Positions 6,555 through 50,619 of a DNA stretch of 64,000 nucleotides are shown one piece after another. A program made the translations under genes and the position numbers. How positions within the stretch are numbered: position 1 is the stretch's first letter; each line of letters begins with the position of its first letter. The DNA lies in the UHGV virus genome UHGV-0310767. One strand, written 5' to 3'. Origin of the DNA: a virus. The notes below the pieces were generated by a model that saw only the letters and a list, made by a program, of their open reading frames with translations, searched no databases and was not told the origin of the DNA.

Positions 6555-7046
6555 TTATTTAATTAACAGTGAAGTTGTTTTTCTTAAAGGCCCTACTCCT
6601 TTAATTGTTTTTACTTTAGCATCTGCTAATAATTTCTTTTTATCCAGTTTTAAAGAAGCAGGAATCTTTTCAAAATATTTCTTTGGTATAAGGGTTTCAT
6701 CAATTTCACCCAACTGGTCTGCCCCATTTTTTAATGTGATGGTATAAATATTTCCACCACATTTTTTAGTTCCAGTAACTTCCATAGCCCCCTTAAGAGC
6801 ATCTTTAAGCCGATTCATAGAATTTTCCACTGTTTTCATTCTGGCATCCAATCTGGCTTTTTCTTTCTTGATTGCTTCAATCTGAATTTCATATTCCTTA
6901 ATTACATAAACATAATTTTCAGCTTTTGAATCAAGTTCCCCTCCTATTCCTTCCAAAGTATCTTTTAATACTTCTGAATCAGGTTCTTCCTCCAACATAA
7001 TCATAAGTTTAAGCATATCCCCTGTAATTTCTCTTAAACTTCCCAT
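6555..7046 (-). CDS. hypothetical coiled-coil protein
   Basis: 163-aa ORF, K/E-rich helical. Confidence 0.4.
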   Translation of the reverse strand: MGSLREITGDMLKLMIMLEEEPDSEVLKDTLEGIGGELDSKAENYVYVIKEYEIQIEAIKKEKARLDARMKTVENSMNRLKDALKGAMEVTGTKKCGGNIYTITLKNGADQLGEIDETLIPKKYFEKIPASLKLDKKKLLADAKVKTIKGVGPLRKTTSLLIK

Positions 7047-43646: not shown

Positions 43647-44555
43647 ATGGAAGTGATTAAAATAGCCACGGTTGTTAAAAAAATTAGACCTATAACTGAT
43701 TCATATTGTATCAAGTGCAATAGACCATATCCTATAGAAGATTTTTATAAAAGTGATAATCCACATCACGTTACAGGAGTAATGCCCTATTGTAAGACTT
43801 GTACTAAGGTAATGTATCAGGATAATTTAAAAAGATTTAAAGATATAAGAAGTGCTTTATGGGTAACTTGTAGTGAGGTTGGTATACCTTTTATGGAAAA
43901 GGTTTATGACAATCTTATGGAAAAAGTAAATAAAGCTAGAGATGAAAAAGTTTTAACTGGTACATATAACTATTGGGGAAATTTTATTTCAAGTTATATG
44001 GCATTAAAGAAAAAAACTGATAAATGGGATAGCTTTGGTGTAACTGATGTAGACAAATCAGAAGCTATTGTAGACGTTAATCAAGAAAAATTAAGAAAAG
44101 AAAAACTCAAACAGTTTATTTTAGACTGGGGAGAACAAGATGAAGATGATTATGCTTATCTTGAGTATCGTTGGGATTTCTATACGGAAGATATAAATTT
44201 AACTCCCGCACAAGAGAGTTTGTATAGGAAGTTATGTATTTCTGAGTTAGATTATCGTAGAGCAAAAGAAAAGGATGAAACTGGAAAAGAACAGCAGGAA
44301 TCTATTCTTAAGCTTATGAAAACATTGAAAATAGATAACTTTACTCAGAAGAAGGAAAAAACACTTACAGAACAAATGCTGGAAAAACAGATTTGGGAGA
44401 TTGAGAACACTACCCCGGCTGAATGTGAAGATTTGAATAAATACAAAGATTTTTGTAATATTGAATCTGATTGGTTTAAGTATATTGTTTCTGCTGTTAA
44501 GAATTTGATTGCAGGAACTAAGGAATACCCTTTAATTCCAAAGAAACGTGATTAG
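43647..44555 (+). CDS. hypothetical protein (possible terminase small subunit by position)
   Basis: 302 aa; immediately upstream of terminase large subunit; N-terminal Cys4. Confidence 0.25.
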   Translation: MEVIKIATVVKKIRPITDSYCIKCNRPYPIEDFYKSDNPHHVTGVMPYCKTCTKVMYQDNLKRFKDIRSALWVTCSEVGIPFMEKVYDNLMEKVNKARDEKVLTGTYNYWGNFISSYMALKKKTDKWDSFGVTDVDKSEAIVDVNQEKLRKEKLKQFILDWGEQDEDDYAYLEYRWDFYTEDINLTPAQESLYRKLCISELDYRRAKEKDETGKEQQESILKLMKTLKIDNFTQKKEKTLTEQMLEKQIWEIENTTPAECEDLNKYKDFCNIESDWFKYIVSAVKNLIAGTKEYPLIPKKRD

Positions 44556-44566
44556 GAGGGTATAAA

Positions 44567-45140
44567 GTGAAAGAAGAAAATAATGAAGAAATTGAGTTGA
44601 TAAAACCAACTATAACTCAATTAATCGAAGAAAGAAAAAGGAAAAATTTAGAAAAGAGAAAAAGAAATCAGAAAAAACCATATGAGCAGAGAAGAAAAAA
44701 TATTATAGAATGGGCTACATTTTATAGACGAAATTGGAATCTTTATGCTGTTCATAGATTAATGATTTCTTTATATCCATTTCAGCATATTATGCTTTAT
44801 TTGATGGGTATAAGTAGTACCTTTTTTGCTATTTGTAGTAGAGGTTTGAGTAAAACATTTATTGTTGCATTAGGTGCTTTAATTCATGCTTTACTTTATC
44901 CTTATGCAGAAGTTGTTATTACTTCTTCTACAATACCACAGGCAAAGAAAATGGTAGAAAAGAAAATGGAGAATGAACTTTGTAAAAAACTTTCTCCTGT
45001 ATTACAATATTATTATGATAACGAAGATATAAAATTTTCGTATAATGATAATGAGATAAAAGTAGAAGTTAAGCCGACAAGTTCAACTATTTTAGTACTT
45101 CCTTGTTTGGACTCGGCTAGAGGTGAAAATAATTTTAGAA
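44567..45140 (+). CDS. terL: terminase large subunit, exon 1 (ATPase N-part with Walker A-like SRGLSKT); 3' boundary approximate
   Basis: GTG start with AGGAGGG RBS; reading frame runs into intron and stops at 45160. Confidence 0.55.
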
Positions 45141-46277
45141 GTGAAATATTATATAATTAAATCTTTAAGAGAGGAAAATATAATATAATGAGAAAAGAAT
45201 GGAATGATTCTGAAATAGAATTTATAAAAGATAATTTACAAAAGTTATCATTTGCTGAAATGGCTGTACATCTTAATAGAACAAGAAACTCAGTTCAATT
45301 AAAGTGTTCAAAAATGGGAATTAAAAAGGGTAGTAAGTATTTTTACAATAAAGATTATTTTGAAAAAATTGATAGCGAAGAAAAAGCTTATTGGTTAGGT
45401 TTTATTGCTGGGGATGGATATATAGTTAAAGCAGAAAGAAATGCTGAATTAGGCATAGAATTGAATGAAATAGATTATGAACATTTAAAGAAATTTAATA
45501 AATGTTTAAAAGGAAATGTTGAAGTTGGATTTAGGAAAAGATTTGATGAAAGAACTAAAAATGAGTATAAAATGTGTTTCATTAGATTTTATTCTAATAA
45601 ATTAGTTGACGATTTGATTAAATTGGGTATTACTCCTAATAAATCTTTATCTATTTGTTTTCCAACTATTCAACAAAAATATTATGTTCCATTTCTAAGA
45701 GGATATTTTGATGCTAATGGATGTATTTCATTTAATAAAAAAAGGAATTGTATAAGTTGTGATTATGCATCTGGTTCTATAGATATGATTAATTCTTTAA
45801 GAAAAATTTTATTTGAAGAATATGGAATAAATTCTTATATAATTCAAGAGAAAACTAAAACTATAAGACTTTATATTAAAGGAATGAAGAATGCTTTTAA
45901 TTTTTGTAATTTAATTTATAAAGATAGCAATATTCATTTACCTAGAAAATATAATAAGTTTTATTTGTTAACTAAAGAATGTAATATAGAACAAAGGATT
46001 AAATAAAAATAGAGTTGCACAACTCGCCTCTCTGGTTGGTGACAATCAGTAAAAATAAATTGGGAAAGAAATCTGGAAACCTGAAATGGTAATCAGAATG
46101 GAAGGATATGTGTAATAGCATATTCACATGCAGAGCGTAGACATTGAACCTGTTTGAATCAGAATATAATATGTCCAAGAGTTCCCAACCCTTTAAATAT
46201 AAAGGTGAAAAGGTACGCCGACCTTGCTAGAAATACAATAGCAAGAACTATGGGATAAAAAGCCTATAGGATAACAT
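45141..46277 (+). mobile_element. group I intron 1 in terL carrying a LAGLIDADG homing endonuclease gene; boundaries approximate (within about 50 nt)
   Basis: HEG with own RBS; downstream core has R-like cagagcgtagac (46131-46142) and S-like tataatatgtcc (46165-46176); in-frame stop at 46272 just before exon 2. Confidence 0.55.
45188..46006 (+). CDS. LAGLIDADG homing endonuclease (intron-encoded)
   Basis: 272 aa; LGFIAGDGYI and LRGYFDANGCIS motifs; GAGAGG RBS. Confidence 0.75.
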   Translation: MRKEWNDSEIEFIKDNLQKLSFAEMAVHLNRTRNSVQLKCSKMGIKKGSKYFYNKDYFEKIDSEEKAYWLGFIAGDGYIVKAERNAELGIELNEIDYEHLKKFNKCLKGNVEVGFRKRFDERTKNEYKMCFIRFYSNKLVDDLIKLGITPNKSLSICFPTIQQKYYVPFLRGYFDANGCISFNKKRNCISCDYASGSIDMINSLRKILFEEYGINSYIIQEKTKTIRLYIKGMKNAFNFCNLIYKDSNIHLPRKYNKFYLLTKECNIEQRIK

Positions 46278-47036
46278 TTGGAACGTGCAACTTTATTAAT
46301 ATATGAAGAATGCAGACTTTTGAAGAAAACTATAATTGATAGTGTTTTCCAAAAAATGGCACATCCACGTCAAGCTAAATTCTTAACTTTACCAGAATAT
46401 CAAGATGAAGATGGAAAACCACTGTCTCGATGGTTGGAGGAATGTAAATCAGTTTATATTACTTCTGCAAGATTTAAGATTGAATGGTTTTGGACAGAAT
46501 TTAAAAAAGTAGTTCAACAATGTATGATATCTTCAAAACATAAGTATAATTTCTTTGCTGGAAATATATTCTTGGCTATATTGTTTGGTTTGAAAACATG
46601 GCAGGATTATTACCATGCTAAAGAATTTGATGGTGAAATAGACCATAAAACAGAGGATTTGAATGAAATGATAGGAGAAGCCGATGGGGCATTCTTCTCT
46701 TTGGAATCGTTTAAAAAGAATCAAACTATTATTACTGCTTTTAAACCTCCTACTTTATTGGATTTATATTCTGATGTAGATTTAGGAAATAGGGTTAAGA
46801 AAGAAAATGAAAAACGTTTGATTTTTATTGACTACGCTTTTGCGAATACTACATCAAAATCTAAGAACGATAACAGTGTTATTGGTTGTATGTCTGTTAT
46901 TTTTAGAGATGATGGAAAAACTTTAAGAGAAATAGATTATATAGGTACTCACCCAGCAGGAGATAGTATAGGTTTCAACTTGAAAATTAGAGAATTTTTC
47001 TTTGATTATCAAGCTGACTATATTGTATTGGATTAA
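46278..47036 (+). CDS. terL: terminase large subunit, exon 2 (Walker B LLIYEE, C-motif ITSAR, start of nuclease domain IFIDYAF); 5' boundary approximate
   Basis: 252-aa ORF segment between two introns. Confidence 0.55.
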   Translation: MERATLLIYEECRLLKKTIIDSVFQKMAHPRQAKFLTLPEYQDEDGKPLSRWLEECKSVYITSARFKIEWFWTEFKKVVQQCMISSKHKYNFFAGNIFLAILFGLKTWQDYYHAKEFDGEIDHKTEDLNEMIGEADGAFFSLESFKKNQTIITAFKPPTLLDLYSDVDLGNRVKKENEKRLIFIDYAFANTTSKSKNDNSVIGCMSVIFRDDGKTLREIDYIGTHPAGDSIGFNLKIREFFFDYQADYIVLD

Positions 47037-48426
47037 TTCTGAGGTCCACTTTTATGGTGACATAAAATGAATAAATGTGTTGAATTGCTGGAAACCCCTA
47101 AAGCCACATGAACCACAACGTAAGTATGAAATAAGACTAAGCGTGATGGTGACGAAAGTAGAAAGAATCATGTGGATGGCATAAGGTTAAATCCTAAGTG
47201 CTTTAAAATGGGCAATCAGCCGCCAAGCTCTGAATAGGAGAAGGTTCAACGACTATCCCGCAAGGGAGTACACTGCAAGCGATTGGCAGTGGAAGTGGCA
47301 CACATCTTATGAAATTAAGATGAAGATATAGTCTGCTCTATATGGAAACATATAGTATCTAACGTGTAGCGGCGTTTTCTTAACTTATAAAAAGTAAATA
47401 AGACAGAGGGTAGCTCCCTTTTCTTGTACTGCAATACAGGATTATTATTTACTTTTTATCATATCTTTTTGCAGAAAGGTTTAAGGTAGAAATTATGAAA
47501 ATTTGGGAAGTAAATTCTAGTAAGCGTTTTAGTTTTGGTTGTATTTATTTATGGACTAATCTTATTAATGGTAAACATTATGTTGGACAGACAGTTAATT
47601 TTTATCAACGTATTCAACGATATAAGAAAGGTTTAATTAATTCTTATATGAAAGAAGATATTGATAAATATGGTATGGAAAATTTTAAAGTTGAAATATT
47701 GGAAAAAAATAGAAGATATTTCAAATGAAGATTTTCTTACTGAAAGAGAGCAATATTGGATGGATTATTATCAGTCTTATGATTTAGAAAAAGGCTATAA
47801 TATATTTGATGTTGCTGGCAATGTCTGTTATTTAAAACGTAGTGATACTATTAAAGAAAGATTTTGTGGAGAAGGAAATGGAATGTATGGTAAACATCAT
47901 TCTGATGAATGGAAACAAAATCATTCTGATTGCGTAAAAGGTTTGTGGGAAAAAGAAGAATATAGAAAAGTTCAGACAGAAAGGATGCAAGGAGAAAATA
48001 ATCCTATGTATGGGGTATCTTTAGATGGTGAGAAAAATGGAATGTATGGTAAACATCATTCTGATGAAACCAAAAGAAAGATAGCTGAAAGTAAAATAGG
48101 GAAAACTCATGCACCTACTCATTTTAAAAGAGTGAGATGTGTTGAAACTGGAAAAATCTATAATAGTCAGAGTGAAGCCGCACAAGAGTATGGCATAACT
48201 CAGGCCGCAATCAGTGCAGTTTGTAAAGGTAAAAATAAGACAGCCAAGAAAATGCATTGGGAATTTGTAGACTAATCTCAAAAATAGTAATAGAAACAAT
48301 ACAAGACTTAGAAATGGTGGTGAAGTAAACTATAATGACCTTACTACAATTCTTGAACATCCACAAAGAGATGAAAAGCATTGGAATAGTCATGGTTTTA
48401 CAGTTTCTTATGAAGAAAGATTACAT
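47037..48426 (+). mobile_element. group I intron 2 in terL carrying a GIY-YIG homing endonuclease gene; boundaries approximate
   Basis: canonical R element ggttcaacgactatccc (47242-47258) and S element gaagatatagtc (47332-47343) upstream of the HEG. Confidence 0.6.
47495..48275 (+). CDS. GIY-YIG homing endonuclease with NUMOD3-like repeats, split by a +1 frameshift at an A7 tract (47703-47709); possible pseudogene
   Basis: ORF1 CIYLWTN...KHYVGQT...R GIY-YIG core; ORF2 carries the EDISNEDFLTEREQYWMDYY...GYN continuation and GxxNGMYGKHHS NUMOD3 repeats; an A6 tract would make a single ORF. Confidence 0.65.
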
Positions 48427-48894
48427 GTGGTTCCAAAAGCTAAGATTGAAGATTTAAAAAGTAGAGCGGTTGACCCACAAGCTATTCCCTGTATTATTCC
48501 AATTCAAGGTACAGAAGAATTGAATAGTAATATGTGGTTAGATTTACAAAAGGCTCTTAAGGGTGAATATATTCACTTCTTAATTGATGAACTTAATTTG
48601 GAAACTTTGATGGAAGAAGATTTAAGCTATTTTGATTTAAATAGTGAAGAAAAAGCAATTATTAAGTTACCTTATGTTCATACATTAGAAATGATAGGTG
48701 AAGCTATCAGTCTTAATCAAACATGGAATGGTGGAAAGGTTAAACTTCATGAACCCCCTACCACCAATGCAACAAAGGATAAAATAGTGGCAGTAAGTTA
48801 TTGTAACTATATTGCTACTCAATTAGAGAATAAATATGCTATACAAAATCAAAGTGATGGAAGTTGGGATGATGTGTGGCAATTAGTATTTTAA
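48427..48894 (+). CDS. terL: terminase large subunit, exon 3 (C-terminal nuclease part); 5' boundary approximate
   Basis: 155-aa segment ending just before the portal gene. Confidence 0.5.
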   Translation: MVPKAKIEDLKSRAVDPQAIPCIIPIQGTEELNSNMWLDLQKALKGEYIHFLIDELNLETLMEEDLSYFDLNSEEKAIIKLPYVHTLEMIGEAISLNQTWNGGKVKLHEPPTTNATKDKIVAVSYCNYIATQLENKYAIQNQSDGSWDDVWQLVF

Positions 48895-48993
48895 TTATGA
48901 GGGACGGCTGATTCAATTGCTATGAGTTGGCTGTCCTTTCTTTTAAATATATACATAAATAAATTTATGAAGAAAGGAGAGAATAAAATATAA

Positions 48994-50619
48994 ATGAAAA
49001 ATAGCCCAAGAATGCTTCCTAAACAACAGCAAGATAATATTTCCATTCCAAATGCTAATATGTTATCAGAAGAAGAAACATATGACGTAATAAAATTTGC
49101 AAGCAATTTATATGGATATGAAGGTTTTGGTGTATATACTCCATGGCTTTCTAATGAAAATTTAATTAACCTTAACAATAATCCACGTATTCCTGGCAAT
49201 TTAGATGCTATTATTAAGGCGTTAAAAGATTATAAAAGAGAAGCTGGCAATTTACAAGCTTATAGTGAGTTTATGGAAGTATTCGATATGCTCTATAATC
49301 GAACTGTTGAATACTATACTAATCTTCTTTCTTTTGATTTGCAGATTACATGTAAAAACGTAAAAAATCCAAAAGAGGATTATGGTTCTTCCAGATATTT
49401 AGAAGATAAAGCAAGAGTATATAAATTTCTTGACAATTTTGATTATAAATCAGAATTTAGGAGGGTTGTAAAACAGGTATTACGTCATGAAACTCATTAT
49501 GTAAGTTTCAGAAATAATATGAATAAAAATGACCCTAAGTATACATTGCAGACTTTACCTCAAGATAGGTGTTTATTAACAGGATATTTTGAAACTGGCT
49601 TGTTATTTGATTTTGATATGATGTATTTCATTGGAACGCCAGGAGTAGATATAGATTGTTATGACCCAATTTTCAAAAAATATTTAAGTGAAGTATGGGC
49701 CACAGAAGGATTGATGGATTATATACCTTCTAATCCTTTGGATAGTCGAGATGGTACATTTACTCTTTATCATCAGACTAGCCCTATGGATAATTTCTGG
49801 GCTTTTAAGTTCGATATGTCTAATTTTTCCTCTGTTCCTTTTCTTTCTCCATTTTTGAAGAATGTTTTCAATAATACAGAGATTGCTAAGTTACAGAAAA
49901 ATAAAGATATCGCTTCTGCTTTTGGTTTATTGTATGGTGAAATGCGTATGCAGGAATCGGCTAAATCTGGTGAGGTTCCTGATAGGTTTTCGCTAAAGCC
50001 AGAAACATTAGGTAAATTTATGAAATTGGTTTCTACAGGATTAAAAAGTGTTATGACTTCTGATTCTGTAATTAAATCTGTAGCTTTACCTTTAGAGGAA
50101 GCAGAATTTAAACAGTTTGAAGATAAAAATACAGGAATGGCTATAGATGCCGCTAAAGATACTATGGCTAATGGAGTATCAGCAAGTAGACTTTTATATG
50201 CTACAGATAGAATGTCTAATGAGGAACTTATTGCCGCAGTAACAGCAGATTACGAAATTGTAGCTAAACTTTATTCACAATTTAATAATTTCTTAGAGTT
50301 CTACGTCAATCAGAAAACAAAACAGTATAAATTTAAGTTTACTTTTGATGGATGTACTCAACCATTTTGGAGAAAACGTAAGCAAGAATCTATAATGAAA
50401 CTTGCTGATGTTGGATTAGTTCTTAATTCAAGCGCATATGCGGCGGCATTTGGATATAAACCTACAGATTTTGATAGATTATTGGAAGAAGGTCATAATG
50501 GAGGAATGTTGGAAAATCTTTCTCAGTTACTTTCTATTCATAATATGTCTAATCCTGGGGGACGTCCACCATCTGATGAACCTTTATCAGATAGTGGTGA
50601 GAGAAGCCGCAATCAGTAG
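48994..50619 (+). CDS. portal protein (by position and size)
   Basis: 541 aa directly after terL; AAGGAGAG RBS. Confidence 0.5.
   Translation: MKNSPRMLPKQQQDNISIPNANMLSEEETYDVIKFASNLYGYEGFGVYTPWLSNENLINLNNNPRIPGNLDAIIKALKDYKREAGNLQAYSEFMEVFDMLYNRTVEYYTNLLSFDLQITCKNVKNPKEDYGSSRYLEDKARVYKFLDNFDYKSEFRRVVKQVLRHETHYVSFRNNMNKNDPKYTLQTLPQDRCLLTGYFETGLLFDFDMMYFIGTPGVDIDCYDPIFKKYLSEVWATEGLMDYIPSNPLDSRDGTFTLYHQTSPMDNFWAFKFDMSNFSSVPFLSPFLKNVFNNTEIAKLQKNKDIASAFGLLYGEMRMQESAKSGEVPDRFSLKPETLGKFMKLVSTGLKSVMTSDSVIKSVALPLEEAEFKQFEDKNTGMAIDAAKDTMANGVSASRLLYATDRMSNEELIAAVTADYEIVAKLYSQFNNFLEFYVNQKTKQYKFKFTFDGCTQPFWRKRKQESIMKLADVGLVLNSSAYAAAFGYKPTDFDRLLEEGHNGGMLENLSQLLSIHNMSNPGGRPPSDEPLSDSGERSRNQ

Follow-up and report, generated by a model that had tools for sequence, protein, structure and literature searches.

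The large-terminase gene (terL) in the virus genome UHGV-0310767 is very probably a single Enterocloster bolteae phage gene into which two unrelated mobile group I introns have been inserted, as judged from comparison of its sequence with those of relatives. The window, namely the whole stretch of 64,000 nucleotides (nt) that was analysed, was found to be a relative of the E. bolteae phages PMBT24 and the CB457/CB473 series by megablast against phage genomes. A sequence-only reading of the window had listed three open reading frame (ORF) pieces with terminase motifs and two homing endonuclease genes between them, and all of these were found at the positions given there.

In PMBT24, terL is uninterrupted (1899 nt, annotated as terminase large subunit), and the portal gene comes next. 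The window aligned to PMBT24 in three blocks, 44000-45127, 46281-47034 and 48300-49500, at 98.7-99.6% identity. When 44567-45124, 46281-47033 and 48307-48894 were joined, a sequence of 1899 nt encoding 632 amino acids was obtained, which is equal in length to the PMBT24 gene. The spliced product differed from PMBT24 TerL by two amino acids, and no frameshift or stop codon was present in the exons. Excision of 45125-46280 and 47034-48306 thus yields an ORF 99% identical to the PMBT24 allele. Because the joined length matches that of PMBT24 TerL with only two amino-acid differences, the three ORF pieces are exons of one gene. In addition, at least 87 full-length homologues of 550-644 amino acids span all three parts, and the spliced protein matched phrog_2, "terminase large subunit", over residues 15-607 (1.7e-17). 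These results agree with the proposal that the three segments are parts of one protein; they are not separate genes, and group I structure is present in both intervening sequences, as described below.

The alignment to an intact TerL, which had been recommended as a check, was made with PMBT24 and fixed both junctions (Table 1). The limits 45160, 46278, 47036 and 48427, which had been taken as exon ends, proved to be those of the ORF caller and not splice sites. Exon 3 had been read from the GTG at 48427, and the PMBT24 alignment places its true start at 48307, 120 nt upstream. The last codon of exon 2 is GAU, for an invariant Asp. At the boundary of intron 1, a 3-nt ambiguity (GAA) was settled by the rule that a U precedes the intron and a G ends it.

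The identity of the protein was also supported by its predicted fold. The TerL profile matched no sequence in the PDB, and a fold search was used instead. The AlphaFold model of a 77%-identical TerL homologue (predicted local distance difference test score, pLDDT, 87.6) gave the large terminases T4 gp17, Sf6 gp2, D6E and HK97 as the top Foldseek matches, with 560-600 aligned columns. An N-terminal ASCE ATPase with Walker A and B motifs and a C-terminal RNase H-like nuclease are found in one chain, and the adjacent downstream gene encodes the portal (phrog_2739). Three PHROG families of "unknown function" (15503, 26582 and 24618) cover only TerL residues 15-228, 317-616 and 420-613, respectively, and probably derive from pieces of terminase genes that introns had split into exons.

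The second intron was recognized directly by the general group I model, in agreement with the sequence-only reading. The RF00028 match at 47025-47355 scored 96.6 bits (threshold 50; E = 1e-23) and covered the full model (1-253), and the R and S elements proposed for this intron were both correct in the Rfam alignment. P1 is formed by 47029-47034 and 47043-47048 (UGGAUU with GGUCCA), with the U.G pair U47033.G47044. P10 is formed by UUCUGAG (47037-47043) and CUUAGAA (48307-48313), the first seven bases of exon 3; it has 7 bp and directly adjoins P1. The third P10 pair varies among relatives, being G.U in the window, A-U in contig L030, and G-C in L035 and CB457P1. In P7.2 (47271-47291), CACUG...CAGUG of the window is replaced by GGAAA...UUUCC in CB457P1, a fully compensatory swap of five pairs. 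Related cores were found in roughly 600 phage records, Twort, phiKZ and ICP1 among them. A scan of genomes for more variants of intron 2 gave four matches, all by chance. The end of exon 2, UUGUAUUG (47023-47030), is perfectly complementary over 8 bp to the tail of intron 2, CAAUACAA (48296-48303); this complementarity was not kept in L030 and L033, and was not treated as functional.

Several results weigh against two mobile group I introns in this gene. The junction GAU/CUU (U47033/C48307; the slash marks the splice site) leaves A48306, and not the canonical G, as the last base of intron 2. The GIY-YIG endonuclease gene of the same intron is frameshifted in the window and is not an intact ORF. 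For intron 1, RF00028 gave no match at E ≤ 10, neither in the window nor for the 278-nt version of CB457P1 that has no homing endonuclease gene (HEG), and no match at E ≤ 1 was obtained for five other members of the intron 1 family. These points are taken up in turn.

The T4 td intron is a group I intron of subgroup IA2 with I-TevI, a GIY-YIG homing endonuclease. Intron 2 shares with td the core blocks AACGACUAUCCC... and GAAGAUAUAGUCUGCUC and a GNRA-capped P9, as well as the layout of the 5' site, GGNU/UAAUU...GAGG, with an in-frame stop at the first intron codon; intron 2 likewise has an endonuclease with GIY-YIG and NUMOD3 domains. On the other hand, the host gene of td encodes thymidylate synthase and its endonuclease gene lies in P6, whereas intron 2 is in terL and its endonuclease gene comes after P9. 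The 7-bp P10, the last base A and the frameshifted endonuclease gene are also unlike td.

The junction U47033/C48307 was chosen because of the reading frame, the invariant Asp, the adjoining registers of P1 and P10, and the td analogy. Intron 2 in this window therefore apparently ends in A rather than G. The prediction that each 5' exon ends in U and each intron in G held for intron 1 (G46280), but apparently not for intron 2 (A48306). Non-G ends were found elsewhere too: CB473P3, L030 and L033 end in ...AAGA/, and L035 in ...CAAAA/. CB457P1 has a different 3' tail with the canonical ...UUCG/CUC at the Asp/Leu junction, and is the only variant with a terminal G. P7, which binds guanosine, has the same td-like G-C arrangement in the A-ending and G-ending variants.

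The junction could also lie one base to the left, so that the exon ends in GA (A47032), the intron extends from U47033 to G48305, and exon 3 begins at A48306 with GAA (Glu) as the junction codon. This is the only other in-frame option that keeps the protein length, and it restores the terminal G; the dinucleotide G-A stands before the exon in the window, CB473P3, L030 and L033. However, Glu would replace the Asp that is invariant in 87 homologues, and the 5' splice site would follow the A of an A-U pair in place of the U.G wobble. U47033/C48307 is also favoured by the 7-bp P10 and by the register of the P1 next to it, and T4 td shares the arrangement GGNU/UAAUU ... /CU. Moreover, the shifted junction is inapplicable to L035, where the nearest G is more than 12 nt from the junction, and to CB457P1 with its ...UUCG/CUC. 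We consider the shifted junction unlikely. Rescue of a GAU-A-CUU ligation product by +1 ribosomal frameshifting was rejected because a slippery site is absent and L033 would lack a stop codon at this place. A search of viral and metagenome collections for spliced junction 2 in DNA or cDNA, in the Asp or Glu form (TTGGAWCTTAGAAATGG), gave 129 matches, none of them in a terL context.

With the junction at U47033/C48307, the intron 2 of the window and of the viable phages CB473P1-3 and CB457P2 would splice naturally with adenosine in place of the near-universal terminal guanosine, a suggestion from the sequences that we hold with slightly more doubt than belief. The unusually long P10 may compensate for the terminal A. 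To our knowledge, such splicing, if true, would be the first case outside hexacoral mitochondria.

Intron 1 was assigned by comparative analysis. At its 5' splice site, the exon end AGAGGU (45119-45124) pairs with GCCUCU (46026-46031) as P1, with the U.G pair U45124.G46026. GUUGCAC (46014-46020) is fully complementary to GUGCAAC of exon 2 (46285-46291) and would form P10; this P10 begins 4 nt into exon 2 and does not directly adjoin the splice site. The intron ends in ...CAUUUG46280, with the terminal G.

A sensitive blastn search with the 3' 280 nt of intron 1 revealed homologous segments in many Firmicutes phages. Where the flanks are annotated, the homologue sits just 5' of the second half of a split gene, that is, the genes for a RecD-like helicase (Bacillus phage PJN02), TerL (Staphylococcus phage CF1) and the major tail protein (Staphylococcus phage F1). 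Further copies were found in human-gut contigs and, in the genomes of Clostridium and Clostridioides phages, in gaps that carry no annotation. A scan of IMG/VR with the family motif GAATATAATNNNNNCCAAGAGT gave 14 loci, only two of which were true family members. The unannotated record of Clostridioides phage pCD1602_4 (L027) has two family copies on one strand, at 968-1141 and 1497-1652, with a spacing of about 530 nt, and this suggests one more gene with two interruptions.

The members of this family share the helix order P1, P2, P3, P4, P5, P6/6a, P7, a P7.1-P7.1a extension, P3', P8, P7', P9 and P9.1, followed by the tail GAUAACA...G. Among 16 family sequences, 27 pairs in P7, P7.1, P7.1a, P9 and P9.1 were 98.8% paired, 18 of them compensatory. 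Among 11 full-length cores, 31 pairs in P2, P3, P6a, P7 and P7.1 were 98.2% paired, with 25 compensatory, and in this set P3 and P7 cross as a pseudoknot. None of 500 shuffles reached these values in either set; slid controls were 26-45% paired in the first set and 26-46% over both. P4, P5 and P8 were assigned by inspection only, without a formal pair count, as MAFFT shifted the columns. A covariance model built from the family found the P7-P3'-P8-P7'-P9 region of intron 2, in register, with 19.6 bits. A third match of this model (17.2 bits; minus strand, 6566-6718) falls within an ORF of 163 amino acids; the match has many non-pairs and was judged a chance hit.

The introns of CF1, PJN02, F1, Clostridium phage phiCP39-O and pCD1602_4 have the same covarying helices as intron 1, and the conserved blocks GUAGAGCRUAG, UGAA...GAAUAUAAU, CCAAGAGU, GAAAAUGUAYGCCGA, GGAUAAAAAGCC and GAUAACA...G are shared within the family. 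The host genes and insertion sites differ; the host genes in phiCP39-O and pCD1602_4 are not annotated. The terL of CF1 (L007 580-600, 1580-1590) is of a different type and is split inside the Walker A codons, GGU/AAA UCU. Its endonuclease gene is of the GIY-YIG type and lies upstream of the P5 3' strand, while that of intron 1 is of the LAGLIDADG type and lies in the P1 loop.

These comparisons uphold the proposal that intron 1 is a group I intron, and correct one of the core elements that had been assigned to it. The true 5' strand of P7 lies within the proposed R element (46131-46142), but the proposed S element, tataatatgtcc (46165-46176), is the P7.1 3' strand; the real S-like element is AAAAGGUACGCCGA at 46208-46221. 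It might still be argued that intron 1 does not splice by itself, and that it is an endonuclease cassette by which terL is divided into parts translated on their own, or an RNA whose removal depends on a protein or on other chemistry. None of the Rfam group I or group II models matched intron 1 in the window, or its 278-nt version in CB457P1, even at E ≤ 10, and the annotators of related phages called the pieces separate hypothetical proteins. In contrast, the 278-nt version persists without an ORF in viable phage isolates, the helices covary in a group I topology including the pseudoknot, and intron 1 has the terminal G, a U.G pair at the splice site and a guide sequence that matches the two exons. 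Its core also aligns in register with that of intron 2, a bona fide group I intron. The break falls inside the predicted ATPase domain, between the invariant Arg-Gly and the Walker B strand. An insertion that does not self-splice is thus improbable, and we conclude, from the comparison of sequences, that intron 1 is a group I intron of IA-like type that is missed by the general Rfam model. The P7.1-P7.1a extension may point to subgroup IA3.

Each intron carries an endonuclease gene of a different family. In intron 1, the LAGLIDADG ORF, given as 45188-46006 by the sequence-only reading, was confirmed to be intact (272 amino acids). The protein has two LAGLIDADG motifs (LGFIAGDGYI and LRGYFDANGCI) and an N-terminal helix-turn-helix-like region, and it matched Pfam LAGLIDADG_3 in two stretches (3.7e-14) and phrog_4645 (6.5e-53). 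Without the cassette, as in CB457P1 and CB473P3, intron 1 is about 278 nt. The first ~60 residues of the LAGLIDADG protein (45188-45370) matched phrog_323, "transcriptional regulator, D5-like" (1.7e-9), which suggests that the N-terminus is an added DNA-binding module.

The I-TevI-like GIY-YIG/NUMOD3 gene of intron 2 was found at the expected position with the expected domains (Pfam GIY-YIG, 3.1e-8; NUMOD3, 2.4e-13), but it is not one ORF. It consists of two ORFs in different frames, 47495-47728 (77 amino acids, GIY-YIG) and 47661-48275 (204 amino acids, NUMOD3). The A-run at 47703-47709 is A7 in the window and A6 in the relatives L003, L030, L033 and L035; removal of one A restores an ORF of 259 amino acids. 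The gene is intact in relatives, and the intact homologue matched phrog_314 (2.9e-44). The extra A is either a recent inactivation or a sequencing error. Unless it is the latter, the mobility of intron 2 may have been lost in this window.

The occurrence of the two introns varies among the relatives. Neither is present in PMBT24. Intron 1 only was found for the protein P0002 and in L032, where it has the LAGLIDADG gene and interrupts a 77%-identical terL. Intron 2 only was found in L030, in an 85%-identical terL. The CB phages have intron 1 without its HEG together with intron 2, and the window and L033, an independent 99.8-kb viral contig, have both introns with both endonuclease genes. These five states, with intron 1 found with or without its LAGLIDADG gene, make the pattern expected of homing. 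The exons of the window differ from those of PMBT24 at 22 nucleotides; 20 of these differences are synonymous, and 15 are located no more than 20 nt from a junction (p = 3e-16). At intron 2, the flanks of the intron-bearing version pair with the guide sequence; those of the PMBT24 version would not. The clustered exon differences together with the guide-matching flanks are a sequence signature of homing with co-conversion, from which we infer the homing step itself. An IMG/VR contig, L034 (3209 onward), has intron 2 up to P7.2 and then unrelated sequence with another ORF, and no exon 3 was found within 11 kb; this contig, with a possible different insertion in intron 2 or a possible chimeric assembly, was set aside.

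Both insertion sites are at codons of the catalytic sites. Intron 1 is inserted in the predicted ATPase domain, at SARG/ERATLLIYEE, and separates the Walker B strand from the invariant Arg-Gly of the SxRG motif. Intron 2 is inserted at IVLD/LRNGG, directly after the nuclease Asp of the motif D-x-R-x-G-G, a residue conserved without exception in 87 homologues. That the interrupted terL is a decaying pseudogene of a defective phage or a misassembly, with pieces that are not expressed as one protein, is highly improbable: decay is hinted at by the frameshift in the GIY-YIG gene and by the end of intron 2 in a base other than G, but the exons differ from PMBT24 by only two amino-acid changes with no frameshift or stop, the same intron 2 variant is present in the plaque-isolated phages CB473P1-3 and CB457P2 in an essential gene, and the independent contig L033 has an identical two-intron layout.

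For a terL interrupted by two self-splicing introns, the following pathway is proposed. The late terL transcript would fold into two ribozymes. Free guanosine would attack after the U of the P1 U.G pair, namely after U45124 and after U47033. The freed 5' exon would then attack the 3' splice site held by P10, and the ligated exons would give the mRNA for the 632-amino-acid TerL. The endonucleases would cut the intronless terL of co-infecting relatives, and repair would copy the intron in.

Table 1. Features of the interrupted terL region (positions in the window)
Feature	Position	Strand	Remarks
terL exon 1	44567..45124	+	GTG start; Walker A CSRGLSKT; ends ...GCU AGA GGU; colinear with PMBT24
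Intron 1	45125..46280	+	Absent from PMBT24; group I helices covary across 16 and 11 members; ends in G46280
LAGLIDADG cassette	45131..46007	+	In P1 loop of intron 1; segment missing from CB457P1 and CB473P3
Intron 1 internal guide sequence	46014..46031	+	Pairs with both exons; read from sequence
Intron 1 ribozyme core	46032..46280	+	Helices as listed below
Intron 1 P2	46032-38/46043-49	+	
Intron 1 P3	46060-66/46182-88	+	
Intron 1 P4	46072-76/46093-97	+	
Intron 1 P5	46079-81/46088-90	+	
Intron 1 P6	46098-100/46127-29	+	
Intron 1 P6a	46104-11/46118-25	+	
Intron 1 P7	46135-39/46214-18	+	
Intron 1 P7.1	46140-44/46171-75	+	
Intron 1 P8	46190-95/46200-05	+	
Intron 1 P9	46223-29/46239-45	+	
Intron 1 P9.1	46248-54/46263-69	+	
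Intron 1 tail GAUAACAUUUG	46270-80	+	
terL exon 2	46281..47033	+	Walker B ERATLLIYEE; ITSAR; first nuclease Asp in IFIDYAF; colinear with PMBT24
Intron 2	47034..48306	+	td-like group I; absent from PMBT24; inferred last base A48306
GIY-YIG/NUMOD3 gene	47495..48275	+	Downstream of intron 2 P9; +1 frameshift in A-run 47703-47709
terL exon 3	48307..48894	+	LRNGGEV... through stop codon; colinear with PMBT24

An ORF of 302 amino acids (43647-44555) lies directly upstream of terL. It has Cys-x2-Cys pairs and matched phrog_3314, a family of unknown function; Pfam YonG_N is present in the L030 homologue. Its position makes it a candidate for the small terminase.

Group I introns have been described in the terL and DNA polymerase genes of Bastillevirinae phages, where terL is split by two or three of them; most are IA-like, most have a loop encoding an HNH, GIY-YIG or LAGLIDADG homing endonuclease, and model searches often miss one side of these ribozymes (PMC11878797). 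As multi-intron group I terminase genes are published, the overall arrangement in the window is already known. The two systems differ in lineage, the window being a siphovirus of Enterocloster, and in TerL family and insertion sites; in Bastillevirinae it is often halves that are missed by models, whereas intron 1 of the window escapes RF00028 altogether. Among natural group I introns, ND5-717 of hexacoral mitochondria is known to have A, and not G, as its last base (PMC8146996). That intron is organellar, very large and thought to depend on host factors, whereas the A-end of intron 2 is deduced from sequence only. The points added here are an unannotated terL in published Enterocloster phages, an intron family invisible to RF00028, and a possible non-G 3' end.

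The CB457/CB473 series is represented by five records in the phage collection, and the terL pieces are listed there as separate "hypothetical proteins", as seen in CB457P1 and CB473P3. Recognition of the introns restores the packaging gene in the annotation of these published Enterocloster phages. The intron 1 family is widespread in Firmicutes phages and escapes RF00028; therefore, phage intron surveys based on Rfam undercount. If intron 2 does splice with a terminal A, it does so in an essential phage gene, where this is genetically testable, with CB457P1 and its terminal G as a natural control, and the result would bear on how strict the need for guanosine is in the second splicing step. 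With their different combinations of introns, the relatives form a compact natural series in which the homing cycle can be studied at two codons of the catalytic sites in a single essential gene.

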